Counted from the first letter of the stretch, positions 1,140 through 19,956 are shown. The stretch is DNA of 20,000 nt from an uncultured virus (IMG/VR IMGVR_UViG_3300024500_000031) (IMGVR_UViG_3300024500_000031); one strand, 5' to 3'. The notes: generated by a model not told the origin, from the letters alone. Program-made: numbers and translations.

Positions 1140-1431
1140 TGACATCCCTCGTTGCTTCACTGACTTTTGCTACTTCTGGTAGTTTCATAGAAAAAACTGG
1201 AAGTGTACTATCCTGTCGCATAAAAAAAGCAATGAGCGCGGTAGTCATTGCCGGAACACCTGCGCGTATACCTTCTATGCTTGCCATCAATAGTGCGCGA
1301 GTAACAGTGCCAAACGAGGCATTGTCCGCAATGTGCTGCGCTTTCCACGCAGCATCAAATTCTGGAGCAGCGCTGGCAGTAAAAGCTCCTAATACAATTA
1401 GAATTAATCTACCCCACGCTATTTTCATCAT
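1132..1431 (-). CDS. Small membrane protein of unknown function
   Basis: N-terminal hydrophobic segment (WGRLILIVLGAFTASAA) and a second one (VPAMTTALIAFF). Start overlaps the stop of the upstream gene. Confidence 0.6.
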   Translation of the reverse strand: MMKIAWGRLILIVLGAFTASAAPEFDAAWKAQHIADNASFGTVTRALLMASIEGIRAGVPAMTTALIAFFMRQDSTLPVFSMKLPEVAKVSEATRDVNE

Positions 1432-2773: not shown

Positions 2774-2775
2774 AA

Positions 2776-3327: not shown

Positions 3328-3338
3328 GTTAATTCTCC

Positions 3339-4352
3339 TTAGTTGGTCGCAATGCGTAAACGAGCAATTGACCGTGTATTTGGCATCCAAAGACCCATGC
3401 CCCAGTCAAACAGTACGTTATGCATAATGCCGTTTTCCTTAGACTTTCCTAAGTACTCTGGCTTAAATGGACCAGACTGCCAACCCTGAACATAGCCAGT
3501 GCCATAGCGTACAGCATAGATGTCTGCAAAGTTAGATGGAGCAGATATAACAGGTGTAGTACCGTCTAACTTACGTCCAACTGTGCGAATCTTGGCACCC
3601 TTATAGCTGTCTACTGATCGATCAAATGCATCGTTATCGGTGTTAAAACCAGTACCAGCGCCTAGTAAACGAATGACAGATTCAAAGCGACGCTTTGTGT
3701 CTTCATTCATATATAGGACAATGCCGTTGCCATCTGGTGCATTTAAGTTGTCAAACAACTCCTGCATTGCAGATAAAGCACCGTTAGCCTCAACAGCTAA
3801 GAAGGTACTAGACGTGTCCAGTGATGCCGATGTCGATGCAGGTGCAATCAAACAGTCGGATGGAATGTCATAATCTGCACGGTTTTCTAAACGGAATTTA
3901 AGACCGGGGAAACAATCCGGACTGTTACCAGCAGCAGAAGACGTTGGGTCGTTATTAATGAACTTATCATTAAAGTCGTATGCAAAACCCTCCATGAAGA
4001 TCTTGATCTGAGCTTCTACAGGATCAATGATATTGTTTGGCTGGTCAAGCAAACGGCAGTCAACCGTAATCTTATTGCGGATTAAATACATCTGCTCTTC
4101 GTACGACTTTGGTTTACCTTTAACTGCGTTTGGCTCACCATTGATAGATGACCAAGTTGGAGTTGGGATAGTACCAGCCTCGTTCGTATAGCGTACACCA
4201 ACCTGTCGTAAAGAAGGCGATGTGTAGAATGGAATGTCCTTGATAGCGTTCCATGTCTGGTGCAACGACATAGTGATTTCTTTTACAAGAGGATCATTAG
4301 AAAGGACAGCTTGATCTGCGAGTGTAAGTGCACCGTTAAAATCGATAGCCAT
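3339..4352 (-). CDS. Major capsid protein (HK97 fold, epsilon15 gp7/BPP-1-like)
   Basis: 337 aa. N-terminal LTLADQAVLSNDPL...IKDIPF, FPGLKFRL, IYAVRYG and C-terminal SIARL. Follows portal and scaffold; SD GGAG. Confidence 0.85.
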   Translation of the reverse strand: MAIDFNGALTLADQAVLSNDPLVKEITMSLHQTWNAIKDIPFYTSPSLRQVGVRYTNEAGTIPTPTWSSINGEPNAVKGKPKSYEEQMYLIRNKITVDCRLLDQPNNIIDPVEAQIKIFMEGFAYDFNDKFINNDPTSSAAGNSPDCFPGLKFRLENRADYDIPSDCLIAPASTSASLDTSSTFLAVEANGALSAMQELFDNLNAPDGNGIVLYMNEDTKRRFESVIRLLGAGTGFNTDNDAFDRSVDSYKGAKIRTVGRKLDGTTPVISAPSNFADIYAVRYGTGYVQGWQSGPFKPEYLGKSKENGIMHNVLFDWGMGLWMPNTRSIARLRIATN

Positions 4353-4361
4353 TGGTTACTC

Positions 4362-5222
4362 CTACCGAATGCCTAGTAATCTACTAAGACCTGACATACG
4401 GTTTTGCGTTGATGTTGATTGCGGTGGAACCATTGCTTGCGCAGAGTCACCACCACCAATAGGTGTCGGCGTTGTCTGTTGATTTGTCACCATATCCACT
4501 AATTGCGGTACGAGTGATTCAACTAAACCCGTCACTTGACGATGTACGGCTGCTGCTGCATCCATTGGATTCATGCCTTGTTGTATAAGGCTATCCATCA
4601 CGTCTTGTGCGCGACTTGCATATGGAAATTGCTGCAACGCCTGTTCACGTTGTTGGGCCACCATATAGGAGTTCATTTGACCTACAACTTGGTCATATCT
4701 AAACTTCTGTATTTCAGCCTCGGCTTGTACGCGAGCAAGTTCCGGATCCATGTAGTTGCTTGCAACTTCATGTTGCCACCGCTCGCGTATTTGATCTTCT
4801 TGGCTTTGCATCTGCTGTTGTTCATAAGCTTTTTGAACATCAGCTGCTGATTGAAAACCAGATTCCTCAAACTGCCGAATCACATCAGCCCACTTTGAGT
4901 ACGCTTCCTGCGCAGCTCGGAGCTGTTTGGCTTCATCGTTAACTTCTTTGAAGCGCTCATATGGCACATTCCCCGGTTGTTTATCCGGTAATGCACTGTC
5001 CAGTAAATGTTTCTTTACTCGTTCTTGTATAGAACTCTGATCAAAAACACCATCTGTTTGCACTTGTGATGCGGTATTGCTATCAGTGGAGTTATTTAAC
5101 GCCATGTCTCCACTTTCGCTAGGTCCGGCGGACTCCCTAACGAAATCAATTAACGCACCACCAACATTGCCCGTTGCCGCTGCTGGCGAATCAGCGGTTC
5201 GTGTCACCATCTCTTCGGACAT
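4362..5222 (-). CDS. Capsid scaffolding protein
   Basis: Lies between portal and MCP. Acidic disordered N-terminus, VPYERFKEVN motif common in phage scaffolds, and Q/E-rich coiled coil. Confidence 0.75.
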   Translation of the reverse strand: MSEEMVTRTADSPAAATGNVGGALIDFVRESAGPSESGDMALNNSTDSNTASQVQTDGVFDQSSIQERVKKHLLDSALPDKQPGNVPYERFKEVNDEAKQLRAAQEAYSKWADVIRQFEESGFQSAADVQKAYEQQQMQSQEDQIRERWQHEVASNYMDPELARVQAEAEIQKFRYDQVVGQMNSYMVAQQREQALQQFPYASRAQDVMDSLIQQGMNPMDAAAAVHRQVTGLVESLVPQLVDMVTNQQTTPTPIGGGDSAQAMVPPQSTSTQNRMSGLSRLLGIR

Positions 5223-5243
5223 CTATATCATACCTTTACTTTT

Positions 5244-7523
5244 TTAAAACATGCCACCCATTTGAGGTGGTTGTTGCACACCCGATTGTGGCAACATTTG
5301 CTGGGGCTGCGATTGTGCCTGTTGTGGCATTGACGGCATTGCTCCCAAATCGTTTGACGGCAGTAACTGTTCTTTACCTATTTCCGTCATTGCGTAATCT
5401 TCATTTTGTTGTGCGTCTATTCCAGCCTTAGCAGCAGCCAATGAAATATCTGCCTCTAATTTTGCCTGAATAATCGCTTGTTGTTTCTGCACTTCTAACT
5501 GCATCTTCATCTGTTCGACTTCAGGATTAAATTGCTCCTGTTTAGCCTGAGCCTCAATCATGGCTTGTTGTTGCATCATGGCAGCTTGTTGCTGTTGCAT
5601 CTGTGCCATCTTTTCTGCCTGTTGATCTAAATGTTGATATATGCGAGATGCATGTGGAATATTAGCCAGCTCAATAAATAGGCGGTTAGTTTCCGGATCC
5701 ATTGGATCACCAAATACGCCCATCTGTCGTAATGCTGCCAATTTCTGTAACTTTTGATCAGGACTATCTTCCATTGACGAACCCGGAATGTAAACAATCC
5801 GGTATTGCCCACCAGCTCGCAATGCATCAAATCGCATAACGCCTTGACGTATTTGATCCTGTGGGAGCATCTTCCCCTGAATGTTTCCTACAAAAGGAAC
5901 AATGGCAAACTGTTCGATTAGTGAGACTTCCCACTCTTTAATTTTTGATGCACTAATTTCGATGTCAGCTCGAATAAACGAATGTTGTGTGTTGTCCGAG
6001 CGTTGCAACAATCTTACAGATTCTGCTGGTGTACCAGCACTCGCCTGCCCTTGACTTACGTCATGCAACCCTGCAACATCCATCATGTCTTTTTCTAACA
6101 TTTGCAACAAAGGAAATAGATCTGATCCAATTCCGGGTGCGCGTTGTATTGCGGGTGGATGACTACCGCGTTTGTAATTAATGCGACGATAAACACGGTT
6201 TTTATCATCTACGCTATCGCCAGTATTGTCGTATGCGTCAGCTCCTACGCCACTTAAATTTTCAACCAAGATGTAGTCTTTTTGATTTTCAAACTGCTCA
6301 ATAAGACGCGAATACACACGGTTGTATGTTAGTTGGAGAGAACATAAATCCCAACCTAAACTATATCCATAAGGCGTACCGCTGCGTGGTTGCCAACGTA
6401 ATGGAATAAAGGGGAATGAATCCTTCTTTTTATATGGCCATGGGCCAGCATATAGCAAACAACTATTTGTGCTAACGATATACCTACCAGATGGATACAG
6501 CGCTGTTGGTTTTTCCCAATACTCGTAAACAATCGCAGCTTGCTTTTTTGTGTCAGTGTTACCTAAATTACTTGGAGATGGCGGAACCCAGCCACGACCA
6601 TTACCATTAGTTCCATCTAAATATGTCTCTACATATCCAGCATTTGTGCCAGTTTGTCCATCAGGTTTAACCAATTTGCCTTGTTCACCATACTTGTCAA
6701 TGAACCATGATAGTGGCTTAACCATTGCGTGGATCATCCACCGCAGATCTGCATCTCGTTTTGCAGTAGGGTCGAAATACACATCAAACGCTGGCAAAAT
6801 TTGCTCAACAATATCGCCTACACGCATTGACGTGTGACCTATGACTTCTGATGCAGTAGCATCCATTTGCGGAACAATCTGCTCTAAGCTTGCGTCCCAA
6901 AAGATTTTTAAAAATGACGTACCGCAGACACATGCCCAGCGAACGCGTTCTTTTGTCTGTGTCTCTCTGTCAAACTTGCGATTGTAGTGATTGACAATAT
7001 AGTTCGCCTCATCGGAAGCCATTAGATCAACTGGGTTGTTACTAATAGGCACAGCGCTTGAATCAGGCGCACATTGCGTTAATTTACCAACTACGCCATC
7101 AATCAGCGGTCGCATCTTATTAACAGTCATATATCTGTTTGGCTCGTCCTCGTTTTGTAAACTTTCTAGATTACGCGCCTGACTATTAATCCTAAACCAC
7201 TGCCGTCCTTCAAAAAAGGCAGTAGCCATTACCCACTCTAATTCCATTTCCTGTCGTGCGCGATACGCTAAATCAAACTGTTGTTTGACAAACGTCATAA
7301 CTCGCTTTGCTTCGTCTGGTTGATCTTTTGGGACGACTTTCCATTCTTTGGCAGTTAAATCAATATTTAAATTCTCTTTATTATCTTTTGCTCCATTTAG
7401 TAACTCAAAGCTACCCGGTGCTCCCACGTCACTTGGCTTGGAAAATGCTGACACTTTCGGCTGCTGCCCCATAACACTTTTAGTCAAAGCGCTACGCATT
7501 AAGTTACTAATATCAATGGACAT
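5244..7523 (-). CDS. Portal protein (P22-like, long Q-rich C-terminal barrel)
   Basis: FFEGRQW...TVNKMRPLIDGVVGK...CGTSFLKIFWD...FDVYFDP...FPFIPL...DVAGLHDVSQG and a Gln/Met-rich coiled-coil C-terminus. Follows the terminase. SD AAGGTGG (7532-7538) supports ATG 7523 over GTG 7535. Confidence 0.88.
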   Translation of the reverse strand: MSIDISNLMRSALTKSVMGQQPKVSAFSKPSDVGAPGSFELLNGAKDNKENLNIDLTAKEWKVVPKDQPDEAKRVMTFVKQQFDLAYRARQEMELEWVMATAFFEGRQWFRINSQARNLESLQNEDEPNRYMTVNKMRPLIDGVVGKLTQCAPDSSAVPISNNPVDLMASDEANYIVNHYNRKFDRETQTKERVRWACVCGTSFLKIFWDASLEQIVPQMDATASEVIGHTSMRVGDIVEQILPAFDVYFDPTAKRDADLRWMIHAMVKPLSWFIDKYGEQGKLVKPDGQTGTNAGYVETYLDGTNGNGRGWVPPSPSNLGNTDTKKQAAIVYEYWEKPTALYPSGRYIVSTNSCLLYAGPWPYKKKDSFPFIPLRWQPRSGTPYGYSLGWDLCSLQLTYNRVYSRLIEQFENQKDYILVENLSGVGADAYDNTGDSVDDKNRVYRRINYKRGSHPPAIQRAPGIGSDLFPLLQMLEKDMMDVAGLHDVSQGQASAGTPAESVRLLQRSDNTQHSFIRADIEISASKIKEWEVSLIEQFAIVPFVGNIQGKMLPQDQIRQGVMRFDALRAGGQYRIVYIPGSSMEDSPDQKLQKLAALRQMGVFGDPMDPETNRLFIELANIPHASRIYQHLDQQAEKMAQMQQQQAAMMQQQAMIEAQAKQEQFNPEVEQMKMQLEVQKQQAIIQAKLEADISLAAAKAGIDAQQNEDYAMTEIGKEQLLPSNDLGAMPSMPQQAQSQPQQMLPQSGVQQPPQMGGMF

Positions 7524-7525
7524 GT

Positions 7526-7678
7526 CTAAATCCACCTTTCATTTGAAATAACACGTTGTACAAGCAGGCGCTCTTCTTTAATTTGCCGTAAATGATTGAC
7601 AAGCCCATACATCAACAATGTTTGCAATGCAACACAAATGGTAATGATTACAGCACAAATGCAAAGAAACACACTCAT
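7526..7678 (-). CDS. 50-aa single-pass membrane protein
   Basis: Read by hand: MSVFLCICAVIITICVALQTLLMYGLVNHLRQIKEERLLVQRVISNERWI*. ATGA overlap with the terL stop; fills the terL-portal gap exactly. Confidence 0.7.
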   Translation of the reverse strand: MSVFLCICAVIITICVALQTLLMYGLVNHLRQIKEERLLVQRVISNERWI

Positions 7679-9420
7679 AGCCAACGTTTTTCATCCTTCT
7701 TTTTAAGCCAAGACGGAACGTATCTTTCGTTCATAGGAATTTTATCTTCTAACTCCGGACATTTAACTGGGTATTCTCGCCACATTACACCGTAACGAAA
7801 ACTATCAATTGCGTGATCATTTTTAGTGCCACTGTCAATATCTTCTGGATCACGTGGATGAGACATAGTAACAGAGAGTTGCTTAATTAAATTAGGACAT
7901 GCACCACGAACAATCTGTAATTTTGGTTTTGGTACACCATTGACTACATCGGTTGCACTAATCCATTCTTTTACTCTTCTCCAACCAGCCTTCCTGTCCT
8001 TTACCGCTCGTACAGCGGGAAGACCTCTTTCCCACCACACTTCAACTGGATACTCACCAATTCTTTCCTCTGTTTTCATTGGAGGAAATGTGTTTGCCCA
8101 GTCAAAAGCAATAGCCTCTAACTTTGTGTTCCATAGCCCGTCGCGGACTTTTGTATTAACAGGAGAAGCCAACTGTCTCTGTTCTAGCAACTCAAGACAT
8201 TTTTCAGCTTGTTTACTACTTACAAGTCCGGCCTCGTACATTTCTCCAATGACATATATGTTTTCGCGATCGTCACTGGCATACAGTAAAAAACACGCAG
8301 GAGCACCAGTACCAAAGTCGTGACTAGCCCACATGCGCCACCACGGTTGAACATCGACATGATCAACAACATGCCATGGCTTACCATCTGGGGAATATTC
8401 TCTAAACTCAGGAAAAAATAATCCACCTACGCCGACCTCGTGTTGACACTCACGTAAGAATGACAGCAATCCATAAGTGTCTATTTCGTGTTGGCAAACT
8501 TCCAACGTCTTATGTTGCCAAGTAGGTTTTCCATTTGTTATACGGTAACCCATGCGTCCATCATCGCGCTCATATGTCGTATATTCAAGATCCTCTATGG
8601 CTGGAACTATTGGTGACTGTATTCTGTCTTGCAACATATCTAAATCACCACTGAGAACTTGCGACATCACTGAATTGGCATGAATGCGGTTTTGGACAAA
8701 TACGACTGCACAATCTGTACTTTTTGCTGGAAGAATAGTTTGAGTAATGGTGCGTATTTTTTTATCAACACCATTTACAGAGTCATCGAGTTCATCAATG
8801 TCGTCCAAAATTATCATGTCTGGTCTGAGGTGATCTAATTTAACACCACGAGCACCAGTGTCTAATCCAAATGCTAATACATTAAAGCCATTAGCCGTAC
8901 GCAACTTGGATGCACTCCAACCCTTTGAAAACCCGTATTTATTAACAGCACGTTCAATACCGCAACGCTCCATTGCTGTAGCAATATCCTGCACGTGCCT
9001 ATCTGCCATGTCTTGCGTAGCACATACATATACAGCAAAACGTCGCGTAGCCTTAACTGCTAGACGACTAACAATCAATTCCATGGTTGTAGATTTACCA
9101 CCACCACGGAACCAACACTCAATCAACGCTGGGCAAAACTTACCGGGAGTAATATCCTCGGCCCATTGCCATGCTCTGTGGTGATGCTGTGCCAGTGTTG
9201 ATGAAGCAGCATGAGGAGCATATATGCGCAACCATTCTTCGTAATTTAATTCATGTCCGGGCAGGGCACTAGCCATACCGCTATCATAATCACCTAGCTC
9301 AATAGCCGAGCCTAATTCATCTTGCAACGCCTCTAGCAAAGCAACCGTTAAAGGTTTTGTTGGTCGTACAAATTTCTTAAATGCTCGCGGCGTTGAACGT
9401 GTCGTTACTTGATTCTTCAT
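7675..9420 (-). CDS. terL: Terminase large subunit
   Basis: Walker A FRGGGKST, GVK...RPDMIILDDID (Walker B), RNase H-like nuclease motifs SHDFG and NDHAIDSFRY; adjacent to the portal. Confidence 0.92.
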   Translation of the reverse strand: MKNQVTTRSTPRAFKKFVRPTKPLTVALLEALQDELGSAIELGDYDSGMASALPGHELNYEEWLRIYAPHAASSTLAQHHHRAWQWAEDITPGKFCPALIECWFRGGGKSTTMELIVSRLAVKATRRFAVYVCATQDMADRHVQDIATAMERCGIERAVNKYGFSKGWSASKLRTANGFNVLAFGLDTGARGVKLDHLRPDMIILDDIDELDDSVNGVDKKIRTITQTILPAKSTDCAVVFVQNRIHANSVMSQVLSGDLDMLQDRIQSPIVPAIEDLEYTTYERDDGRMGYRITNGKPTWQHKTLEVCQHEIDTYGLLSFLRECQHEVGVGGLFFPEFREYSPDGKPWHVVDHVDVQPWWRMWASHDFGTGAPACFLLYASDDRENIYVIGEMYEAGLVSSKQAEKCLELLEQRQLASPVNTKVRDGLWNTKLEAIAFDWANTFPPMKTEERIGEYPVEVWWERGLPAVRAVKDRKAGWRRVKEWISATDVVNGVPKPKLQIVRGACPNLIKQLSVTMSHPRDPEDIDSGTKNDHAIDSFRYGVMWREYPVKCPELEDKIPMNERYVPSWLKKKDEKRWL

Positions 9421-10129
9421 TTACTATTTCTGCGTCCATAATTTCATCTTGTTGATACTGCCTAAGTAATTTTCCAAATCCAACTTTGATTTGCTCTAAT
9501 TGCCCTGCATCTCTTACGCAATCTTTTACTACCTTCAAAATCTGCATTGCCAGACTATACGCTTGATCAACCTCTAACGTGTAGGCCTTAGTGTGCAACA
9601 TTCGCGCTTCGGCCTCGACGATGTCAGTGCGTTTTTCAATTAGTTGAACAACATCCTGACTGGCACGATATACATCAATGCCTTCAGTGACCATGGACTC
9701 TAATTTCTTAAACGACTTTGCAAACTCATCTGTGCCGATTGATGTTTTACATACATACAGCTGATCTTTTATAGATTCATAGTGTTCGACAGATATGCCA
9801 TTACTAGCAGCTTCAGCACGTACATCCATCAATGCCGTTAAATACGCGGCATCATCTTTTAAACTAAATAGGTCTGGGTCTTCTCGTAATTCTTCTATAC
9901 GCCTTAACAACTTTGGTGCTACTGAGGCAAAACGTTTACGCTGCTTTGACCATAAGCCTGTTTTAAATGCCGGACTGTCTGGTCCAACTAATGCTTTGCC
10001 ACCATGATGCTTGCAATAGTCACGTCCTTTAATGGCTACATTCCTGCACAATTCACCTGATGCGTTTTTAGATGAACATAATTTAACGTGACTGCCGTTA
10101 GGCATTTCCCGAATATGTTCTGTCGTCAC
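9377..10129 (-). CDS. Putative terminase small subunit with HGGxSTG-type Cys/His domain
   Basis: CSSKNASGELCRNVAIKGRDYCKHHGG...FKTGLWSK followed by a helical region. Directly upstream of terL and overlapping it; GTGA start/stop overlap with the upstream gene. Confidence 0.7.
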   Translation of the reverse strand: MTTEHIREMPNGSHVKLCSSKNASGELCRNVAIKGRDYCKHHGGKALVGPDSPAFKTGLWSKQRKRFASVAPKLLRRIEELREDPDLFSLKDDAAYLTALMDVRAEAASNGISVEHYESIKDQLYVCKTSIGTDEFAKSFKKLESMVTEGIDVYRASQDVVQLIEKRTDIVEAEARMLHTKAYTLEVDQAYSLAMQILKVVKDCVRDAGQLEQIKVGFGKLLRQYQQDEIMDAEIVNEESSNDTFNAASI

Positions 10130-11148
10130 TGTACATTCCTTATTGTAGTAGGTGACGGCGCAGCAAAGCCCAATAGCGGTGGTTTATTTGGTCCGGTATA
10201 TGGCTTTCCAGCGGATGGAGATGGTTTATTTATTTTAGCTGCCCATTTTGGAACCGCTTTGTCGAGGTTTTGTAAATCATTTAAAATTTCAATAGTTGTT
10301 CGAGCCTGTGGAGTTCGTAATACATCAAGAAACTTTTGCTTATTGACGTCAGCGGTTTCCATTTTACCTGCGTTTCGTTTTTGTAATGGCGTCATTGGTT
10401 TACTGCGATCAATACGTAACTTGCCACTATTGTCTATTTTTGTAGGTGGTACATTTTTTGGGTCAGCAAGTTTCATTAATTGAAATAAAACTTCATCATC
10501 GCCTAAATAATAATCACCTGTTTCTGATGGATCTCCTAACGATTTAAGCCCATCTTTAAACAGGTAGCTATCTCCGATTCTAGATTTTGCAGCACTGTTT
10601 AGGATTTCCGTTAAATATGGTATTTTGTCAAACCGTGTTTTACCTTGAGCGTCTGGCTCTAACATGTATTCATTTAGTTTATTTACGCCTGAAGCTAAAA
10701 ATGGATCTGTAATAGCATTAGCTACACCTTCAAATTTTTCTGACGCAACTTGACCGATTAAACTTTTGTTAGCCAATTTTTTTAGAGCAAGTGTCATCAA
10801 TGCATCTTTAATAGCGTTTCCAGCAACTAACGTCATGTTTGACCCAAATACATTGGTTCTTGTCTGTGGATCTACATCTGGCGTCATTGTTCGCCCTATA
10901 GATAACACTGGATCGTAATACATTGGCGCTTCCTGCATTACGCGCCCTAATGTTTTAGACGCACCTCCTCTTGTTGTCAATAAGGTCCCAGCAGCATCAA
11001 ATGGTAAACGGAATCGCACATCATTGCTATATAGCGATTGCATGTGCCTACCAACCGATTTTGCTGGATTTCTACTTAAGCGATCTTCTGTTTTAGCTCG
11101 TTCTGTTTTTGGGCCAAGCCCTTTTAATCCTTCTAGTTCTTGTGGCAT
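10126..11148 (-). CDS. Hypothetical protein, 340 aa (last member of the Cys-free array; possible internal virion protein)
   Basis: Long ORF starting MPQE immediately after the upstream stop. No recognisable domain. Confidence 0.75.
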   Translation of the reverse strand: MPQELEGLKGLGPKTERAKTEDRLSRNPAKSVGRHMQSLYSNDVRFRLPFDAAGTLLTTRGGASKTLGRVMQEAPMYYDPVLSIGRTMTPDVDPQTRTNVFGSNMTLVAGNAIKDALMTLALKKLANKSLIGQVASEKFEGVANAITDPFLASGVNKLNEYMLEPDAQGKTRFDKIPYLTEILNSAAKSRIGDSYLFKDGLKSLGDPSETGDYYLGDDEVLFQLMKLADPKNVPPTKIDNSGKLRIDRSKPMTPLQKRNAGKMETADVNKQKFLDVLRTPQARTTIEILNDLQNLDKAVPKWAAKINKPSPSAGKPYTGPNKPPLLGFAAPSPTTIRNVQ

Positions 11149-14100
11149 TTATCTATTCCTTTCAGACATAGCTCCAGTAGTTACACCAAGACCACCTAAT
11201 ACGCCGAGCGTCTTATTAAATTTAAATTTAGATTTAGGTTTATTAGGTTGATACAACCCTGCTAATGGAATTGGAGTTGGATCTTTAGAAACAGTAGTTC
11301 GTTCACCTTGAGGTAGTTTGGGTTTAATTTTCTCACCACCACTTGCAACACGAGTCCCACGATTTTTATTAGCAATGTCAATTTCTCGTTTATTTGCTGG
11401 CTTGACATCTAAACCAGCAATACTGTTTTCAATATTGGTACCACGAACTGTTCCGCGTGCTTTTGTTCTTTTTTCCAGAGCCATAAATTCTTTTACGAGT
11501 TGCTCTGGACCTGTTGCAGTCATCCAACCAAGTTCCGGGAAGAATGCTGTATAGAAATATCTTGCTGCAGCTCTACGAGCCTTGCTTTCTTCCGCACTCT
11601 TTGCTCTGGCACGCGCTAATATTTCTTGTGTAGTTGGTTTGTCAGCCTCTTCAATTGGTCTGACAATATTCATTGGTGGTGTTTTAATGTTTTCTCGTAC
11701 TTGAGTGTCTATTTCTTCCTGTGTTGGTTGGAAAGACGATATCGTTTTTGATAATTTAGAACTTGCTTGTTGTTGTGCTTTCACATCATCAGACAATACT
11801 GCATCAATATAATCTCGCAACCCATCACGTATAAGTGCTGTTTCCGTATTATTTGCCCCAACTTCTGGAACTGATGTGATTAGACCTTTCATTATTCTGT
11901 CTGCTGCAAATGCTTTTTGCTGATCATCCATTAGACCGACGCCAGCATCCATAAATTGATCAGCCATATTCCGAATAGTTTGTTTAGCTGTTGTTGACAA
12001 TGTGAACATTGTAGTTCGTTTCTGTTCAAGTACAGTGTTGCCAGCTTCGCGTTCCAATCCGGATAATGCAATCCCTTCAGTACCAGCCGACTGTCCTCGA
12101 CTGTTACTTGCGTTCATCGTCCAGTTAACTCGTGGGTTAGGTCTTAACACATCGCTTTGACCATACATATCCAAGAATGTTAATAGGTCGCGTTGCTGTA
12201 CTTTGTTTGCTGATTGTAGAAATTTCTCAACATCAGTATTTAAAATACGACCAGTAGTATTTCCTTGACTATCTATCTCTGGGGAAATACCAGTTTTTTC
12301 ACGCAACCAGTTAATGCGTTCCTGAGTCTCAGCACCGCCTAAAGACTGTGCGTCTGCATAAATAATTTTTTCAAGGTGGCGTGTAACTTCATGCACCTGC
12401 GATCGTATATACCGTGCATCAACCGAATCACCACGTCCAGTGTCATTAACGGCTCGTTGCAATAAACCAGCTCTTGCTTGTTCGGCAGATGCTTGTGTTT
12501 GCGTAGTGAATCGATTATTACCAAATGGGTCTAATGCTCGCTGGTATTTACCATCAACTAATTCAAAAACTGGAACACGTAGATTACCTTTTGAATCTGG
12601 CTTAACAGCCACAGGTTGCATGTTTGGAACAGGACGCCCACGCGTATCCACAGGAACAACTAATACACTACCTATTTTTGTTGTTGTAGATGTACCAGCA
12701 GCGCCTTTAAAGTATCTGTTTATATTTACGCCGGGCGTATTTGTGACAGATGCATATAGCATGTCAACAAACTGACTAACTTTACTTGCTGATCCGGTAG
12801 CCCGAATTGGTTCACTATAATCTGGGCCATCTTCTGTCATTCTAAACAGTAAATGACGACCAGCTCCTGCGCGAACAACATCATCTACATTACCTAAAGC
12901 ACGTTCACGTACGCCTTCTAACGATTCTAGTAATGCCTGTGATCCAGCAACTTTCTCCGGTGGGAGACGATCATTGTCAAGATTAAACCGCAATTTACTA
13001 ATTGCGTCATCAACACTTCGCAGCGTTTCATCGAACAATGGATCAGCTGATTTTTTATCTGGCCCACTAGTAATACTAGGGCTAAGGTATTTTTCTATAT
13101 CGCTAATAACAGTTGCAATTTTTTGATCATCACCAGCCTCGGCAACGAATCCAATTTGATATTCATTTTGATTATCGCGTGTGGTAAGACCAAGTATTCC
13201 TGCATCAGCTTTATATTGACCAGCTAATCGTGCAACAAGTGACGGTCCACGCAATTTAAGTGTAGAATTATCAAACTTATCCGCTGCCCTGTTAAATGCA
13301 CCCCGCTGCGCTAAATAAGCGTCTATAGCTTGCCGACGCGAACCACCAGCTCCCGTAATGTCTTCGATATCTAATGGTAATACGTTTCGTGGTTTACCTT
13401 GACCATTAATACCTTCTACATTTTTTGCACCAAATAATGTCCGTAATTGATCTGTGTCTGAAAATGGAGCAAGTAATTCAGCTGCTTTTCTATTATCACC
13501 AGCATTTAATGCAGAATTGAGATCATTCTGTATTGCATCAAATGCTTCTTCTTTGCCAGCAGTATCAAATGTAAACAACTCGCGTAATGCACGTTTAATA
13601 CCAAATGGAGCAGAAATAGCATCAAGCAACGGCTTTCGAGATGGATCGTCTGGTGCTCCGGCAAAATCAATAATCTGACTAAACATGTTTTGTGTATCAG
13701 TAACTGACATACTTGCTTGCAACGGTCGAATAAATGCTCGACCCCATGGTGTTTTTTCCAAAGCTGCAAATCCAGCTACCGACCCGTTCTGGAATCCATC
13801 GTAGAAAGGCATAATAAATCTATTCATCAACCTAACGGTTGCTTGCCTAGCTGTTCTTGATCCCTCTGCGCCACGAACCATGTCGTTTGAAACACTATCT
13901 AAACTGTGTTTTACAACTTCTGCTAAAGCGCTATTTAAACCTTGTGCTCGCTGATTTGATTTGGCAATAGTACCTTCAGCACCACGCTTAAACATATATC
14001 CTAGATCTGGGTCTTCGCTAAGTTGTGACTCAATACCGTCGCGATACATTTCCATTGTAGGATCACCACTTATAGCCATATTGAAATAACTACGTGCTGT

Positions 14101-15393
14101 ATCCAAATCGTATTCATCTGAACGTCCAACGGCTGTTAAATATCCTAATCCAGCTTTTGCTAATCTGTCTGCTGCACCTGAGTTTAATCCTAATTCGTTT
14201 TTACTTCGTAATGTCGTATCTAGAATTTTGTATCCCGTGCTGGATGTAATAGCAGATGCATCAGACAGGAATTCACTACTCTTTTTTGCCATAACATCTT
14301 TAATTATCTTTACATTAGCTGCACTCAATAACGGCTTGCCGTATGTGCGTTGATATTCCGACAACACTTGATCTAAAGGCTTGTTATAACTGGTTGCTGC
14401 AATGCGTTGAAATTCTGGTTGTTTTGTTGCATCCAAACCAACTGCTGCAATTTCGCCAATTAATCCTTTTTGCAGTCCAATACCACGCTGTCGCAATAAT
14501 GCAACTTCGCGATCTAATTGACTTTTTGTTGCTTGCATTAATGTAAACGGATTGTTTGAACCAGAACCTTTACGTATAGTGGTTCGTATTAATTCATCAA
14601 CACGTCGTGTTGCGCTTACGTTTTTTGGACCAAGAGATAATGGGTCGTCTTCTACACGTAAACCTTTAATTTGTTGATAACGCGCCTCTGCATCTGACAT
14701 TGTTGGTGGCGCTTCAGTAGTAAAACCCTGCGAAAAATTAGCGCGTGTACTTGCACCCAAATCACGATTTAGATCTGATTGCGTTATTTCGCCAGCTTCA
14801 TATGCACGCTGTAAATCAGCATCTGCTCTTGCACCAGCCATTAGATCATCAGCTGATGTTGTTGGTGATAAACCAGTGTTAGTTACTCTGACGTCACGAA
14901 TACGTGTTTGTGCATTTTCATTGATTGGCATACCAGCAGCTTCTTGCTCTTGTAATACAAGATCCCTGCCTTTACGCTTTACAATCTTATTTCCTTGCGC
15001 ATCAAGTGTTGGTTTAAATTCTCTAAATCCAGAAACTGGATTTACTTCGTAAGTTCCCTCATATTCTGTATATGCAGGTAATTGACTTCCAGCATCTGAT
15101 CGCCAGTCGTATTCTGGTAATTGTTTCTGGGTCGCTGGATTTACTGGTCCACGTCCACCTTTTAGTAACCCAAGTAGCTGTTGTGCTGCTTGCTGGGTAC
15201 TAGTACCTTGTGTTGGTGGTTGTGCTCCAGCGCCACCAGCTCCTTGTTGTGCTGGTGTTACTGCAGATTGAGATGCTGGCATCTGCGGTGTAGGTGGTGA
15301 TGAAGGCGCAGGTGTTCCACTAGGCGGTCCTGCTGGAGCACCTTTCTTTTTCTTGTCTTCATCCATCATCATATTCATTAACGCAGATGCCAT
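11149..15393 (-). CDS. Large 1414-aa protein with conserved C-terminal motif; putative internal virion/ejection protein
   Basis: SD GAGGT. Pro/Gln/Ala-rich N-terminus, helical composition, no Cys. Ends KTLGVLGGLGVTTGAMSERNR*. Function is inferred. Confidence 0.8.
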   Translation of the reverse strand: MASALMNMMMDEDKKKKGAPAGPPSGTPAPSSPPTPQMPASQSAVTPAQQGAGGAGAQPPTQGTSTQQAAQQLLGLLKGGRGPVNPATQKQLPEYDWRSDAGSQLPAYTEYEGTYEVNPVSGFREFKPTLDAQGNKIVKRKGRDLVLQEQEAAGMPINENAQTRIRDVRVTNTGLSPTTSADDLMAGARADADLQRAYEAGEITQSDLNRDLGASTRANFSQGFTTEAPPTMSDAEARYQQIKGLRVEDDPLSLGPKNVSATRRVDELIRTTIRKGSGSNNPFTLMQATKSQLDREVALLRQRGIGLQKGLIGEIAAVGLDATKQPEFQRIAATSYNKPLDQVLSEYQRTYGKPLLSAANVKIIKDVMAKKSSEFLSDASAITSSTGYKILDTTLRSKNELGLNSGAADRLAKAGLGYLTAVGRSDEYDLDTARSYFNMAISGDPTMEMYRDGIESQLSEDPDLGYMFKRGAEGTIAKSNQRAQGLNSALAEVVKHSLDSVSNDMVRGAEGSRTARQATVRLMNRFIMPFYDGFQNGSVAGFAALEKTPWGRAFIRPLQASMSVTDTQNMFSQIIDFAGAPDDPSRKPLLDAISAPFGIKRALRELFTFDTAGKEEAFDAIQNDLNSALNAGDNRKAAELLAPFSDTDQLRTLFGAKNVEGINGQGKPRNVLPLDIEDITGAGGSRRQAIDAYLAQRGAFNRAADKFDNSTLKLRGPSLVARLAGQYKADAGILGLTTRDNQNEYQIGFVAEAGDDQKIATVISDIEKYLSPSITSGPDKKSADPLFDETLRSVDDAISKLRFNLDNDRLPPEKVAGSQALLESLEGVRERALGNVDDVVRAGAGRHLLFRMTEDGPDYSEPIRATGSASKVSQFVDMLYASVTNTPGVNINRYFKGAAGTSTTTKIGSVLVVPVDTRGRPVPNMQPVAVKPDSKGNLRVPVFELVDGKYQRALDPFGNNRFTTQTQASAEQARAGLLQRAVNDTGRGDSVDARYIRSQVHEVTRHLEKIIYADAQSLGGAETQERINWLREKTGISPEIDSQGNTTGRILNTDVEKFLQSANKVQQRDLLTFLDMYGQSDVLRPNPRVNWTMNASNSRGQSAGTEGIALSGLEREAGNTVLEQKRTTMFTLSTTAKQTIRNMADQFMDAGVGLMDDQQKAFAADRIMKGLITSVPEVGANNTETALIRDGLRDYIDAVLSDDVKAQQQASSKLSKTISSFQPTQEEIDTQVRENIKTPPMNIVRPIEEADKPTTQEILARARAKSAEESKARRAAARYFYTAFFPELGWMTATGPEQLVKEFMALEKRTKARGTVRGTNIENSIAGLDVKPANKREIDIANKNRGTRVASGGEKIKPKLPQGERTTVSKDPTPIPLAGLYQPNKPKSKFKFNKTLGVLGGLGVTTGAMSERNR

Positions 15394-15401
15394 ATCTACC
15401 T

Positions 15402-15710
15402 CTACTTATTGCTATTAGAATTGAACAACGCTTTTGTCATTTTACCTGCGCTTGCTGGAGCAGCACTCTTCGACTTACCGCTTGGCGTTGGTTTTCCACT
15501 ACTGTCGTAACGTCGTCCGTCAACCTTACCTTTTTGATAGGCTTGCATTTCTTTATTACTAGACGCTGTCTTCTTTGCATCTTCACGTGCAAGCATTGCA
15601 CCAGCAGCAGTACCTGCTCCTATCAACATACCTTGTGCACGTCCAACACTTCGACTATTACGTGGCCAGTTCTGTTGAAACCTAGCCGATCTTCCCGGTC
15701 CTTGTGGCAT
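15402..15710 (-). CDS. Basic 102-aa protein with an internal copy of the array motif
   Basis: Contains RAQGMLIGAGTAAGAMLARED; tightly packed with its neighbours; starts MPQG. Confidence 0.75.
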   Translation of the reverse strand: MPQGPGRSARFQQNWPRNSRSVGRAQGMLIGAGTAAGAMLAREDAKKTASSNKEMQAYQKGKVDGRRYDSSGKPTPSGKSKSAAPASAGKMTKALFNSNSNK

Positions 15711-15711
15711 T

Positions 15712-16938
15712 TTATCTATTCCTTCCTGTCATTACTCCACCAGTTACCCCTGCACCACCCAGTAAGCCAAACCACTTTCTTCTAGCTGGCTTAGTATGCT
15801 TCAAATCATCATCCATTAATGCAGCTTCAGTTTCTGCTAAACGAGCATATCGCCGTTTGTCACGCGCACTTGGCAATGTAGATTTACGTATACTTTGATT
15901 TTGTTGTTCTATTTGTTTAACGATTGGATCATTTTTTGATAGCCTTGGCCTCATTGTATGATCCTCTGTGAATCCGGGCAGTGTTAAACGTGGATCCATT
16001 ATTATTCCAGCTGCTGTTTCTGGTGCTAAAAATCTAGCAAGCCAAGGAGTTGACTCTTTTCTAGCAGCCATACGTTCTTTTATCACCGCAGTATTTTGCT
16101 GGTTAATAGCGCTACGAGCAAGTGGATTACCACCAGCAATGCTAGGATCAATTGTTCCTGCTTGAAAATCTGGCTCAATATTTCCACTTAAAGACTGTAG
16201 TATTTTGGTTACTAGGTTATCTGTTGAAACTTGATCGGTGGCAAGATTTTTAGTTCTAGACTCCTCCCAGTCAACACGTTTTGGCTTAAATGGTTCTCGT
16301 GGTGGAGGCGCAGGAGTAATAACGTCTTTCATTTCAGGCGTTAATTGATTATATAAAGTATGTCTGTAACTCATTATTTTTCTTAGTTGTTCAGGTAGCG
16401 CTTCCCATTTCTTTTCAAAGTTAGCGTCCCTTAAAACTTGTTGTAATTCTGGGTTATCCTCATACCGTCGTCTACGTGACTCTAATAACCCACCATCTAA
16501 TTCTTCTAACTCTTGCCGTTTACGTTCAGCACTATCTAAACGCCTGTTAAACATGTCTTGATCTGCTAGTTCATACCACTTTGGGTTAGCTAAGACATCT
16601 TCGTCATACTTTGGGTCATAAAACATTGCTGGTGGCTGTGTTCTTAATATGTCGTTGTATGTTAGTGCTGTTTTTTCTGTCGTTCGATTTGGCCTAGGAG
16701 TTTCGCCGTATAGCGCAATGTCAGGCCTGCCATACATTTCTTCAACATCCCACGCAGGTTTATTGAAAAAACTCAACGGTAATTGAGTCCGTAACTGATG
16801 CACCTCAAATGGCTCAGTTTCTTTACCAAAAAATAATTTGTTTAACTTTTTTTGGTCCGAGTAATTTAAATTTTGTCGCATGGCCTGATAAAAATCGAAC
16901 CACGTTTGGTTAGGCAGGCGTTCTGTTTCTTGAGCCAT
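15712..16938 (-). CDS. Hypothetical 408-aa protein with conserved C-terminal motif
   Basis: Ends RRKWFGLLGGAGVTGGVMTGRNR*; starts MAQE. Confidence 0.8.
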   Translation of the reverse strand: MAQETERLPNQTWFDFYQAMRQNLNYSDQKKLNKLFFGKETEPFEVHQLRTQLPLSFFNKPAWDVEEMYGRPDIALYGETPRPNRTTEKTALTYNDILRTQPPAMFYDPKYDEDVLANPKWYELADQDMFNRRLDSAERKRQELEELDGGLLESRRRRYEDNPELQQVLRDANFEKKWEALPEQLRKIMSYRHTLYNQLTPEMKDVITPAPPPREPFKPKRVDWEESRTKNLATDQVSTDNLVTKILQSLSGNIEPDFQAGTIDPSIAGGNPLARSAINQQNTAVIKERMAARKESTPWLARFLAPETAAGIIMDPRLTLPGFTEDHTMRPRLSKNDPIVKQIEQQNQSIRKSTLPSARDKRRYARLAETEAALMDDDLKHTKPARRKWFGLLGGAGVTGGVMTGRNR

Positions 16939-16944
16939 AATTGA

Positions 16945-17337
16945 TTACCTGTTCTTATTACTCATCGCACTACCTGCAGTACCTATACCTAGTAACATAC
17001 CCAATGTTTTTCGCGGGCTTGCACGTAAAGACACCATGCCTTTAGCTAACGAGCTAGGCCCACGCGCAGCATTATTTCTACCCTCACGCGACAATGGTGG
17101 GTTTTCTCGCGGATCAATACGTCCATACGTTTGTTTTTCCTCACCACCGTAGTAACCACGCTTCCTGTTCTCTAACTGGTTAGTTATTCGTAATAAATAA
17201 CCTTCTTGTGATTCGTTTGGACGAACAGGAGGCGGTTCTATTCCATAGGATCTCCACTTGTCTAAAGTAGCTTGAGTCCTTAATGAAATTTTTTGGGGCC
17301 TTCCAGATGGAGACGTAAATTTAAATTCTTGGTCCAT
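16945..17337 (-). CDS. Hypothetical 130-aa protein with conserved C-terminal motif
   Basis: Ends RKTLGMLLGIGTAGSAMSNKNR*; starts MDQE. Confidence 0.8.
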   Translation of the reverse strand: MDQEFKFTSPSGRPQKISLRTQATLDKWRSYGIEPPPVRPNESQEGYLLRITNQLENRKRGYYGGEEKQTYGRIDPRENPPLSREGRNNAARGPSSLAKGMVSLRASPRKTLGMLLGIGTAGSAMSNKNR

Positions 17338-17341
17338 ACAG

Positions 17342-18112
17342 CTACCTGTTCTTTTTACTCATAGCTCCAGCTGCTGTTGCAATTCCAAGTAATGCTCCAA
17401 ATGTTTTACGTTTTACTGGTGCCTTTGGTGCACTTGCTGCTGATTTACGAGCCGCAAGCTGTCCACGCATTTTACCTGTTTGGTCACTTAGGTAATCATT
17501 CATATAGTCACGTGATCTTGCTCGTCCAATATTTTCACTTTCTCGTGCACGTTGTGAATATGCGTTCGCGTAACTGCGTTCGCCTTCATTCATTTTTAAG
17601 CCACGCTCAGCAATGTCTTTTGTATACATACGACGCTTTGTGCGTTCTGTTTTTGCACCAGTAAAATGAATGTCACCCCTTGGGCTAGTGGTTTCTGTAC
17701 TGCCTTTTACTGTACCAATAGTGCGTACTCGTGGTCGTGTTGGTCTGCGACCACTATCAGGCATATCTTCATCTCTAACTTTAGATGCTTCTGTTGCTAC
17801 ACCCGGTAAGTTCAATCCTGCTAGATTTGGAGTAACAACAAAATTTGCTGGTAGACCACTAATCGACTTTGTAGGTTCTAACGGCCTTTCTGGTATAAAA
17901 CTCGAATTAGAAATTGCAGAACGACTTAATCCCATTGATGGTACATCTGATTGAAAGCCGACAGGTTTCATTCCACCTTTTTTGCTTGATTTAGAACCGG
18001 ACGTTGTTGTTCCACGACTAGTTCCTACATCTCTCGTGATAACACCTTTTCGTCGAGCTTCAACTGCATCTGCACGTCGTTTATCTCCGGGTCGATTTCT
18101 ATTTTCAGCCAT
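17342..18112 (-). CDS. Highly basic 256-aa protein with conserved C-terminal motif
   Basis: Strong SD AAGGAGG. Arg/Lys/Ser-rich and probably disordered. Ends RKTFGALLGIATAAGAMSKKNR*. Confidence 0.8.
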   Translation of the reverse strand: MAENRNRPGDKRRADAVEARRKGVITRDVGTSRGTTTSGSKSSKKGGMKPVGFQSDVPSMGLSRSAISNSSFIPERPLEPTKSISGLPANFVVTPNLAGLNLPGVATEASKVRDEDMPDSGRRPTRPRVRTIGTVKGSTETTSPRGDIHFTGAKTERTKRRMYTKDIAERGLKMNEGERSYANAYSQRARESENIGRARSRDYMNDYLSDQTGKMRGQLAARKSAASAPKAPVKRKTFGALLGIATAAGAMSKKNR

Positions 18113-18143: not shown

Positions 18144-18392
18144 TTAACAGTCCCACGCTCTCAATGATTTGTTAATACGGCTGTTTGGATTGTTAGCCGT
18201 TTTTGAAGACGTAAGTTTCTTTTTCATGCCAGACATACGGGCACAAAAAGAGGCACGACGCCCAGCGTCTGCCTTAGTTTTAGGATTAGGAGCTGGCGGT
18301 TTTAAATTTGCGCCAGTTGTGCGTTTGTAATACGCTCTACCAGCGGCATTTAATCCTCCCGCTGGATTTTGATGTTTCTTTGTAACTCCCAT
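18144..18392 (-). CDS. Conserved small basic phage protein (DUF6321-like)
   Basis: NPAGGLNAAGRAYY...NLKPPAPNPKT...RRASFCARMSGMKKKLTS...PNSRINKSLRAWDC matches, from memory, a widespread phage family. SD GAGGTG. Confidence 0.75.
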   Translation of the reverse strand: MGVTKKHQNPAGGLNAAGRAYYKRTTGANLKPPAPNPKTKADAGRRASFCARMSGMKKKLTSSKTANNPNSRINKSLRAWDC

Positions 18393-19091: not shown

Positions 19092-19126
19092 AGAGCACTG
19101 ATTCACTCAGTGCTCTCTTCTTTTTT
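19092..19126. terminator. Probable bidirectional terminator between the convergent 64-aa ORF and thyX
   Basis: AGAGCACTGA-TTCAC-TCAGTGCTCT 10-bp stem followed by CTTCTTTTTT on +. On the minus strand it is followed by TAGTTTTGTT. The loop contains the thyX stop. Confidence 0.65.
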
Positions 19127-19756
19127 CATCCAATACTTTTTAAATGCTTCTGTTGTATTTGGTAGAACTTTTGTTAGTACATTCCAGCAATCAGTAGCAA
19201 CTTCTCTATGTTCTAGTTGCGTGTGGCTATCCATTCGCACCCTGCAATAGTGCAGCCAGTCACGGACAGTGCCTTTCATGTATAAACGAGTGCCTACGCA
19301 CAGTGGAAGCACCATACGCGCGGATTCTAATGCAACACCAGACTCTACTAGATCGTTATAAGCTCGTATAGCAACCAAAATTGGAGCGAGCGCTTTATTA
19401 TCCATCTGAAATTGAGTTTCTTGATCTTCATAAACAACACTTCCTTGGCGATTAGAGCTACCTTTTCGTCTCATTTTTGGTAAATCTAGCTCAATTTTGC
19501 TAACATCAGCGTATCGTTGGCTAAATTCTTGAAAATGAAAGCTTCTGTGGCGTAACATTTGCGCTGACACAGCCCTAGAAGTGTAGATTTCCATGACAAC
19601 ATCAACCATTTCAAACACAGACCAGTGCCCATCTCGCATACATTTATTTAATAATCGTATGTATTCTGGATTATCTTCATAATTAGACGATACGCGAGCC
19701 AAATGAATCATAAATTGCTCTGCGTCGGGTTGAATATACTTGAGTGTTGCTGCCAT
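19103..19756 (-). CDS. thyX: FAD-dependent thymidylate synthase
   Basis: GHWSVFE, ThyX motif RHRSFHFQEFSQRY, ESARMVLP, RDWLHY...HTQLEHR. Real start ATG 19756 (MAATLKY) with SD GGAGG. The ORF-track extension to 19933 runs through the tRNA. Confidence 0.95.
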   Translation of the reverse strand: MAATLKYIQPDAEQFMIHLARVSSNYEDNPEYIRLLNKCMRDGHWSVFEMVDVVMEIYTSRAVSAQMLRHRSFHFQEFSQRYADVSKIELDLPKMRRKGSSNRQGSVVYEDQETQFQMDNKALAPILVAIRAYNDLVESGVALESARMVLPLCVGTRLYMKGTVRDWLHYCRVRMDSHTQLEHREVATDCWNVLTKVLPNTTEAFKKYWMKKEESTE

Positions 19757-19766
19757 CTTTCCTCCA

Positions 19767-19847
19767 TGCCTCAGACGGGACTCGAACCCGTACGTCTTGC
19801 GACAACAGATTTTAAGTCTGTCGTGTCTACCATTCCACCACCGAGGC
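19767..19847 (-). tRNA. tRNA-Leu(UAA), CCA not encoded
   Basis: GCCTCGG/CTGAGGC acceptor stem, D arm GTGGAATGGTAGACAC, anticodon arm ACAGA-CTTAAAA-TCTGT, long variable arm GTCGCAAGAC, T arm ACGGG-TTCGAGT-CCCGT, discriminator A followed by TGG. Confidence 0.95.
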
Positions 19848-19856
19848 TTATGGCAC

Positions 19857-19886
19857 ATTGTATCACCATGTAATACATGATAGTAT
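19857..19886. promoter_or_regulatory. Overlapping divergent promoters around palindrome CATGTAATACATG
   Basis: Minus strand: CATGTATTACAT-GG-TGA-TACAAT, then 9 nt, then the tRNA 5' end. Plus strand: TTGTAT(19858-63)-17 bp-TAGTAT(19881-86) with TGn extension. Confidence 0.6.
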
Positions 19887-19956
19887 ACAAACAAGACGCG
19901 ATGAAAGTTTAAAAGTCCGCCCATCATGCCCAATCGACAATTAAACCGAGCGAATT

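Follow-up and report, generated by a model that had tools for sequence, protein, structure and literature searches.

A shared C-terminal tail on unrelated proteins of an uncultured podovirus evolves in concert within genomes and is uncoupled from the capsid protein

Why should four phage proteins of very different size, with bodies that are otherwise dissimilar, end in versions of the same 21 residues directly at the stop codon? The question is raised by a 20,000-nucleotide (nt) stretch of DNA (the window) from an uncultured virus in IMG/VR (IMGVR_UViG_3300024500_000031), a fragment of a podovirus (short-tailed phage) with an estimated genome completeness of ~31%, in which all plausible genes lie on the minus strand. 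The window agrees with a virus record of 19,650 bases in IMG/VR except at one base and for short additional ends. The proteins are encoded in a block of six orphan genes (256, 130, 408, 102, 1414, and 340 amino acids [aa]) that follows thyX, SSB, and the gene for a DUF6321 protein and precedes the terminase genes. In gene order, the block and its repeat are as follows.

17342..18112, minus strand: p256, net charge +26, low complexity; tail KTFGALLGIATAAGAMSKKNR plus stop at 17342-17407
16945..17337, minus strand: p130, folded N-terminal domain (~aa 7-60) and disordered linker; tail KTLGMLLGIGTAGSAMSNKNR plus stop at 16945-17010
15712..16938, minus strand: p408, an orphan; tail KWFGLLGGAGVTGGVMTGRNR plus stop at 15712-15777
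15402..15710, minus strand: p102, basic; internal copy of the apolar tail segment at aa 27-39 (nt 15594-15632)
11149..15393, minus strand: p1414, the giant of the block; tail KTLGVLGGLGVTTGAMSERNR plus stop at 11149-11214
10126..11148, minus strand: p340, final gene of the variable block; tail-less, ending in ..TTIRNVQ
11127..11214: DNA repeat (partner at 15689-15777) spanning tail, stop, and the next gene's start, 73-79% identity

An initial annotation had described the ending as a common tag on p256, p130, p408, and p1414, and all four open reading frames (ORFs), with the 21 residues directly at the stop, were verified on the minus strand. A profile of the four tails scored its own tails with E values of 2.1e-12 to 1.1e-10 among 8241 six-frame ORFs from the window and 80 related loci. 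A supposed fifth copy does exist in p102 (E = 0.0071), but it is internal and not at the C terminus. Once the tails had been removed, blastp revealed no convincing similarity between the bodies (the best pair, p256/p408, reached E = 0.002 in a six-sequence database), so that by this comparison they are unrelated. p130 and p256 are 38% identical across their last 65 residues, tail included. The Pro/Lys/Arg-rich basic linkers reported ahead of every tail were likewise found. As read from the sequences, each tail comprises a basic linker, an 8- to 9-residue core ([ST]-h-[GS]-x-L-L-G-h), a genome-specific, uncharged extension rich in Gly, Ala, and Ser, and a basic end. As to the proposed GxxxG zipper, a spacing of the small-xxx-small(-xxx-small) kind is present in three of the four window tails and in 15 of 25 tails of the clade, 9 of the 25 having it with two Gly, and no glycine-zipper family in Pfam matched the tails.

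Synonymous DNA differences had been taken as a sign of conservation at the protein level, a claim borne out in part. In five of the six window pairs, 3 to 9 of 9 to 15 identical residues use the same codon, which is about the chance rate; the p408/p1414 pair departs from this and shares 11 of 13 codons, versus 5.5 by chance. Altogether, 30 to 47 of 63 bases are identical among the window tails. The DNA similarity of the p408/p1414 pair (73 to 79%) does not end at the stop but takes in the beginning of the gene that follows (11127-11214 versus 15689-15777). Because codons are shared and the likeness crosses the stop into the next start, this pair looks like a DNA-level copy, and tail, stop, and next start seem to have been copied as a single unit. 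The two tails that are most alike are followed directly by the starts of p340 and p102 (11127-11150 and 15689-15712, both MPQ..), which share 79% DNA identity. We rejected the view that all tails stem from a plain DNA repeat, since it applies to the p408/p1414 pair only.

A scan of IMG/VR for the large terminase subunit (TerL) yielded 268 relatives, of which 80 loci (L-numbers below) were kept. The exact tail was found only in L023, which represents the same phage, and in L008 (TerL, 92%). In its 52-kb record, L008 has six profile matches, five of them tails and one an internal copy, and none lies outside this block. Its orthologues of p256 and p408 are 55% and 54% identical to the window proteins (L014 p408, 40%), and its p102 orthologue has 104 aa. 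The p130 orthologues are 28 to 92% identical and carry different tails. In L023 (3106-7351), otherwise 100% identical, a frameshift or an assembly error divides the giant gene into two ORFs (372 and 1049 aa). Syntenic proteins with different tails of the same layout are present in L006/L007, L011/L012, L014, L098, and L099 (TerL, 88 to 93% where measured): a basic linker, then an uncharged stretch of 12 to 19 residues in which Gly, Ala, Ser, Thr, Leu, and Met abound, then basic residues up to the stop. All 13 distinct giants (1296 to 1795 aa) close with basic residues after an uncharged stretch, and the layout rule holds for 20 of 414 distinct ORF ends up to 9 kb upstream of TerL, versus 4 of 446 elsewhere. 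Thus, what orthologues in related phages keep is the layout of the tail, not its sequence.

The motif itself was sought in IMG/VR, with a profile of nine tails against 1.84 billion representatives, and by scanning with a degenerate DNA pattern. In its exact 21-residue form it occurs in three IMG/VR records from two phages. Half of the six matches to the nine-tail profile were repeat artefacts; the three true ones were the L008 giant, a 256-aa protein, and a 132-aa p130 orthologue with a near-identical tail. Apart from one chance match, off-frame within a portal gene, the DNA pattern hit nothing but the two relatives already known. Because these wider profile and DNA searches added little, the 21-residue motif is taken to be confined to a very narrow lineage. 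Apart from the internal ones, the copies are C-terminal and sit on diverse proteins near head genes, features that the initial annotation had wished to check by a profile search, but they do not form a broad family. A second C-terminal ending, ..[ST]-[LM]-[ST]-K-x-[LIM]-[ML].. followed by a Lys-rich end, was observed on small basic block proteins of the whole clade (e.g., L006:2159-2638, L037:5469-6140, and L040:6560-7042). It includes the C terminus of p102 (..GKMTKALFNSNSNK, nt 15402-15446), which is separate from the internal apolar copy; a profile of the p130 N-terminal domain gave no link to proteins with this ending.

How the tails of one genome relate to each other was analyzed in a sample of seven genomes that together carry six tail types. 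Tail similarity scores averaged 52.4 for different proteins within a genome (n = 30), versus 24.9 for orthologues across genomes (n = 46), and none of 5000 trials in which genome labels were shuffled within orthologue families attained the observed value. The tails of L008 p256 and p130 have 18 of 21 residues in common, with 8 of 18 codons shared (8.4 by chance), and those of L014 p408 and its giant 15 of 21, with 5 of 15 codons shared (6.9 by chance). As the codons are mostly randomized, the tails are kept alike by selection at the protein level and not by recent gene conversion. The tails therefore undergo protein-level concerted evolution, mostly without recent gene conversion. Two tail subgroups recurred, one formed by p130 and a second small protein, the other by p408 and the giant.

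The tailed genes are co-directional, on the same strand, and directly upstream of the terminase, portal, scaffold, and capsid genes, with replication genes on the other side. Downstream of the block the order is small terminase, TerL, portal, a 286-aa protein in the scaffold position, major capsid protein, two SU10-type adaptors, and holin.

9377..10129, minus strand: probable terminase small subunit, from its position and a weak match to PHROG 10899 (E = 0.006)
7675..9420, minus strand: TerL (PHROG 38, E = 9e-29)
5244..7535, minus strand: P22-like portal (Pfam PF16510, E = 6e-23; PHROG 156)
4362..5222, minus strand: putative scaffold, assigned by its position between the portal and capsid genes; C terminus ..NRMSGLSRLLGIR plus stop at 4362-4403
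3339..4352, minus strand: major capsid protein (PHROG 212, E = 4e-28)
825-1160: holin (PHROGs)

The block is hypervariable, unlike the flanking head genes. L006 and the window share 93% identity in TerL, 87% in the portal, 87% in the scaffold, and 91% in the capsid protein, versus 27% in the giant. L004 has a capsid protein ~100% identical to that of the window, a scaffold 95% and a portal 92% identical, and yet a giant of only 26% identity and an L006-type tail. Co-variation of the tails with the capsid protein thus fails, and the scaffold end is invariant where tails vary. Co-variation with the portal was rejected as well, because tail type does not track the portal C-terminal region, which is 82 to 85% identical among seven close relatives across tail types and 69 to 70% in three more distant ones. 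This portal region (5244-5700, minus strand) is long, helical, and rich in Gln, Ala, and Met, possibly a P22-like barrel, and ends in a conserved ..G-MF. Since tails change while the capsid protein, scaffold, and portal stay near-constant, these three are excluded as the partner that fixes tail sequence, which must therefore be set by the other tails, by another block protein, or by something in the host.

We tentatively favor an explanation, to which we give somewhat less than an even chance, in which a co-evolving tail tags head-internal, probably ejected, proteins from a swappable block for association and packaging, joining them in one assembly. The block proteins would travel inside the head and be ejected with the DNA as internal, pilot, or ejection proteins. 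The tail would be a short association peptide through which the small proteins and the giant bind each other or a block-encoded partner, so that they would be packaged together and later leave together. Its apolar segment, with basic residues on either side, may then come to lie at or within the membrane of the host. The argument for an association peptide is that the tails, one in layout and restricted to the block, change together across genomes while the capsid protein, scaffold, and portal do not. The block proteins are basic (net charge +8 to +26, p408 +3), of low complexity, and largely disordered; such orphans, directly upstream of head genes, look like internal head proteins. The earlier proposal of an address label is supported in part: a shared tail under protein-level selection, on unrelated proteins beside head genes, stands, and the likeness of the core to the scaffold end is a new point for the idea of capsid loading.

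Several points weigh against an association tag. The location of the block proteins inside the virion is one that we infer, as are binding between tails, packaging, ejection, and any membrane role. In L006 and partly in L014, the tails of the small proteins and the giant differ strongly (scores of 14 to 43); therefore, a single bundle of all tails misfits some genomes, and two pairings fit better. Giants are tailed in L015, L017, L018, L020, and L021, where no small tailed protein was seen, so the tail of the giant has its own role. A single fast-evolving receptor, block- or host-encoded, that all tails bind would lead to concerted evolution just as well. AlphaFold2 (AF2) gave no confident structure for the tail (predicted local distance difference test [pLDDT] below 50 for that of p130, compared with ~80 for its N-terminal domain), and a zipper-type spacing is found in just the 15 of 25 tails mentioned above. 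Finally, the likeness of the tail core to the scaffold end is better explained by docking to the capsid protein.

Loading into the capsid was the main idea of the initial annotation. By scaffold mimicry, the tail core would copy a scaffold C-terminal peptide that docks inside the capsid protein, and would draw tagged proteins into the procapsid as cargo, by analogy with the 80alpha scaffold and SaPI1 CpmB, the HK97 protease tail, and encapsulin cargo peptides. The putative scaffold ends in ..MSGLSRLLGIR, and [ST]-h-[STG]-x-L-[LM]-G-I with a basic end is present in 21 of 22 distinct scaffold ends, at identities down to 36%. In the same register, T-h-G-h-L-L-G-I occurs in the tails of the small proteins from the window and L008. 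Profile-profile comparison with hhalign placed KRKTFGALLGI of the tails on NRMSGLSRLLGI of the scaffold (P = 0.0021, at a probability of only 13%). An 8-residue pattern derived from the scaffold occurred 13 times in 1200 distinct non-scaffold ORFs, versus 0.29 expected (maximum of 2 in 200 shuffles); 5 of these matches are window or L008 tails, and all 13 sit 2 to 9 kb upstream of TerL. Of 61 occurrences of L[LM]G[IVM], 35 are no more than 20 residues away from a protein end (19 C-terminal and 16 N-terminal; 4.5 expected per end), and these terminal copies are spread over 17 unrelated body families, all upstream of TerL (P = 1.4e-4). Endings such as ..TMSSLLGIGTAISTQGKR in the L098 tail and ..VITQLLGIAPALYTTQKKEK in the L020 giant illustrate the likeness, and there is a precedent in the C-terminal helix-and-hook by which the 80alpha scaffold and CpmB bind the capsid protein (PMC5644958).

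The motif tests were, however, framed only once the likeness had been noticed, and the scaffold gene was assigned by position only. The scaffold end is near-invariant, whereas tails differ greatly between phages with ~100% or 87 to 91% identical capsid proteins; docking could therefore use the short core at most, and it leaves the likeness of the genome-specific extensions within a genome unexplained. Moreover, the LLGI core is common to p256, p130, and the scaffold but absent from the tails of p408 and p1414. A complex prediction for the capsid protein (34-row alignment) and the last 43 residues of p130 gave a score of 0.00 and a mark of 0.32, which speaks neither for nor against binding. Docking of this kind, a live rival at least where the core is concerned, appears rather unlikely to be the explanation of the tails.

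Scaffold-like motifs (..LSKLMGIK.., ..LSDLLGIS..) were also observed at the N terminus of several small proteins 1.5 to 4.5 kb upstream of TerL in relatives (L025:6460-6651, L031:1037-1309, and L050:7966-8997), and in more distant relatives at the N terminus of a protein of ~343 aa ahead of the small terminase. The first 16 residues of p1414 (MASALMNMMMDEDKKK, nt 15346-15393) are almost unchanged in the 13 distinct giants, the rest of which is 17 to 71% identical, and this invariant N terminus is a candidate docking peptide for a conserved partner. It (MASALMNMMMDE.KK) loosely resembles an S-x-L-M-G-h motif; the scaffold profile gave it no score.

Association and docking could also be joined in a form of modular addressing. 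A swappable cargo block would carry a private, co-evolving C-terminal "zip code" that joins its proteins to the giant as a hub, and invariant scaffold-like peptides (the scaffold end, the LLG core, and possibly the invariant N terminus of the giant) would dock the set in the conserved head. We hold this joint reading to be doubtful, on a par with docking by itself. If true, whole cargo sets would be swappable between phages with identical capsids, an encapsulin-like two-level code within a true virus.

A purely membrane-active peptide is less probable still, and we consider it distinctly unlikely. In that case a segment resembling a fusion peptide or glycine zipper would insert the ejected proteins in the host cytoplasmic membrane, as an anchor or DNA conduit, and would have no role in packaging. 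Uncharged runs of 12 to 19 residues between Lys or Arg are present in all 25 tails, which are far more apolar than scaffold ends (best 15-residue hydropathy, 1.26 versus 0.25). Among sequences in the Protein Data Bank (PDB), the tails come closest, without significance (E = 0.69), to a paramyxovirus-type F protein at its furin site and fusion peptide; T7 gp16 carries a hydrophobic region at the C terminus and needs its basic end (PMC8954989); and helices packing together within a membrane would co-evolve too. On the Kyte-Doolittle scale, with the classical threshold of 1.6 over 19 residues (a second scale was used only approximately), 24 of 25 tails nevertheless fall below the threshold (mean, 0.77; window tails, 0.49 to 0.79), compared with 1.5 to 1.9 for the phage's own membrane proteins. 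Lys, Glu, or Asp follows after 10 to 13 apolar residues in several orthologous tails (L014, L017, L018, and L021), and Pfam and NCBIfam returned no membrane or zipper family. A standard membrane anchor was rejected on the grounds that the tails are too polar, their runs being only 12 to 19 residues long with much Gly, Ala, Ser, and Thr. A role at the interface, or like that of a fusion peptide, is possible following ejection. The suggested analogy with bacterial C-terminal sorting signals also broke down, as the proteins lack signal peptides (their N termini are charged and polar), the tails are too polar, and neither NCBIfam nor Pfam gave a match.

We regard it as very improbable that the block proteins are not virion proteins but tail-anchored or peripheral membrane proteins made late in the cell (for exclusion, lysis timing, or an assembly site) and sharing a common anchor. 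The basic-apolar-basic layout at the extreme C terminus would suit such proteins, and the block adjoins replication genes as well as head genes. Yet hydropathy is too low for a membrane anchor, a mostly helical protein of 1300 to 1800 aa together with highly basic disordered proteins is typical of head-internal proteins, and the lysis genes are elsewhere in the operon (the holin at 825-1160, and an endolysin in a relative). That the tails have no special function, being leftovers of tandem duplication or low-complexity ends copied by recombination, as the p408/p1414 repeat with its following gene starts and the 38% identity of the ~65 C-terminal residues of p130 and p256 might suggest, is hardly credible given that most within-genome pairs keep 14 to 18 of 21 residues despite randomized codons and that tails stay at the exact C terminus in six types and seven genomes while bodies diverge beyond recognition.

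The tail had been presented as belonging to no described family, and this was borne out by Pfam, PHROGs, NCBIfam, PDB sequences, and the ESM Atlas. Pfam gave no family for the tails alone (E up to 10), NCBIfam gave none for the whole proteins (E up to 1), and in the PDB, profiles built from the giant or from the tails matched no sequence significantly. p256 matched no family in Pfam, PHROGs, or NCBIfam, and the same three collections held none for the putative scaffold. The ESM Atlas gave nothing for p1414 or p408 (its model of p408 has a pLDDT of 0.44), and neither protein had a match in deposited phage records. Foldseek with the p130 model returned only weak generic helical matches. The AF2 model of p1414 aa 600-1150 is largely helical (mean pLDDT, 71); it had no Foldseek match at E ≤0.001 and, with VIA-align, Z scores of at most 6.3 to generic helical repeats. 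The idea that the giant is a virion RNA polymerase was rejected, with no support from Pfam or fold comparison. No close cultured phage was found, as deposited phage records match TerL at no more than 31% identity and the portal at no more than 25%.

Several observations concern the wider neighborhood. The DUF6321 protein directly upstream of the block (18144-18392, minus strand) is the best-conserved gene product there (73 to 90% across the clade), and in PHROGs this domain forms the C terminus of far larger phage proteins. The thyX ORF (19103-19933, minus strand), as listed, has a TTG start 68 residues ahead of the Pfam match; its true start is probably further downstream (MAATLKYIQ.., as in relatives). 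In G001, the record of L008, a second giant ORF of 1830 aa (reverse complement, 79-6372) has no family and no tail, and after it a CHAP-domain endolysin closes the late operon. Because of the CHAP enzyme and a distant likeness of portal and terminase to those of Arthrobacter and Microbacterium phages, the host may be Gram positive (actinobacterial), although these are hints.

To our knowledge, little is known about how short-tailed phages choose the proteins that are packed in the head and injected, barring a few N-terminal labels (T4 and P1). If the label is an address, the rules of cargo choice could be tested by simple fusions, the swapping of injected protein sets as units would be explained, and a natural handle to load foreign proteins in phage heads would be at hand. 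Concerted protein-level evolution of short tails is also a general route to such labels in metagenomic phages.

Among known systems, the 80alpha scaffold and SaPI1 CpmB have in common the C-terminal helix-and-hook already mentioned, with an RIIK motif (PMC5644958). Like it, the tails described here are short C-terminal peptides with a basic end on unrelated proteins in the setting of an HK97-fold head. In the 80alpha case, however, the peptide is that of the scaffold almost letter for letter and its binding was seen by cryo-electron microscopy, whereas here an 8- to 9-residue core resembles the putative scaffold at the level of sequence; the tails also carry a long extra extension and vary under a ~100% identical capsid protein. 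N-terminal capsid-targeting labels are found on the T4 internal proteins (IPI-III and Alt) and on P1 DarB (PMC9024508). There, too, one short label is used by several unrelated, partly very basic proteins whose genes lie in variable regions. The labeled T4 and P1 proteins are packed in the head and injected. Their labels are N-terminal, and that of T4 is removed by a head protease, whereas here the label is C-terminal in four proteins and internal in one. No head protease family was detected among the 22 window proteins (of a genome ~31% complete) or between the portal and capsid genes of a relative.

Encapsulin cargo-loading peptides are short, C-terminal, and rich in Gly and hydrophobic residues, follow a flexible linker, are common to the cargo of one system, and act within an HK97-fold shell. 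By description, the tails agree with them in being C-terminal peptides after a flexible linker that are common to the block proteins of one genome. Encapsulin peptides follow their shell protein, whereas these tails change while the capsid protein stays the same. Tripartite sorting signals (LPXTG, PEP-CTERM, and GlyGly-CTERM) likewise have an apolar stretch and then a basic cluster at the very end of unrelated proteins; unlike them, the tails are on cytoplasmic phage proteins with no N-terminal signal peptide, and the apolar stretch is too polar for a membrane helix.

As for ejection proteins, it has been reported that the C-terminal hydrophobic region of T7 gp16 and its five basic C-terminal residues are needed for infectivity and that podovirus ejection protein families diverge beyond recognition (PMC8954989), and that in cyanophage A4's pre-ejectosome, terminal helices fasten four ejection proteins to one another as well as to the portal barrel (PMC12002296). 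The block resembles these sets in its giant, mostly helical protein with smaller partners and in its rapid divergence. It differs in that its genes precede the terminase genes rather than follow tail genes, and in its common tail, of which the accessible text on the T7 and A4 sets describes no counterpart. Known ejection proteins (of the T7 gp14-16 and P22 gp7/16/20 type) gave no match in Pfam, PHROGs, phage records, or PDB sequences and no fold match, and a full-text literature search for papers on phage ejection proteins that have a glycine zipper or a C-terminal label in common returned none among the matches listed. Terminal labels on phage internal proteins are already known. What is unusual here, and well supported, is concerted evolution within genomes that is uncoupled from the capsid: the label is exchanged along with the cargo block between phages with ~100% identical capsid proteins, and selection keeps its copies alike.

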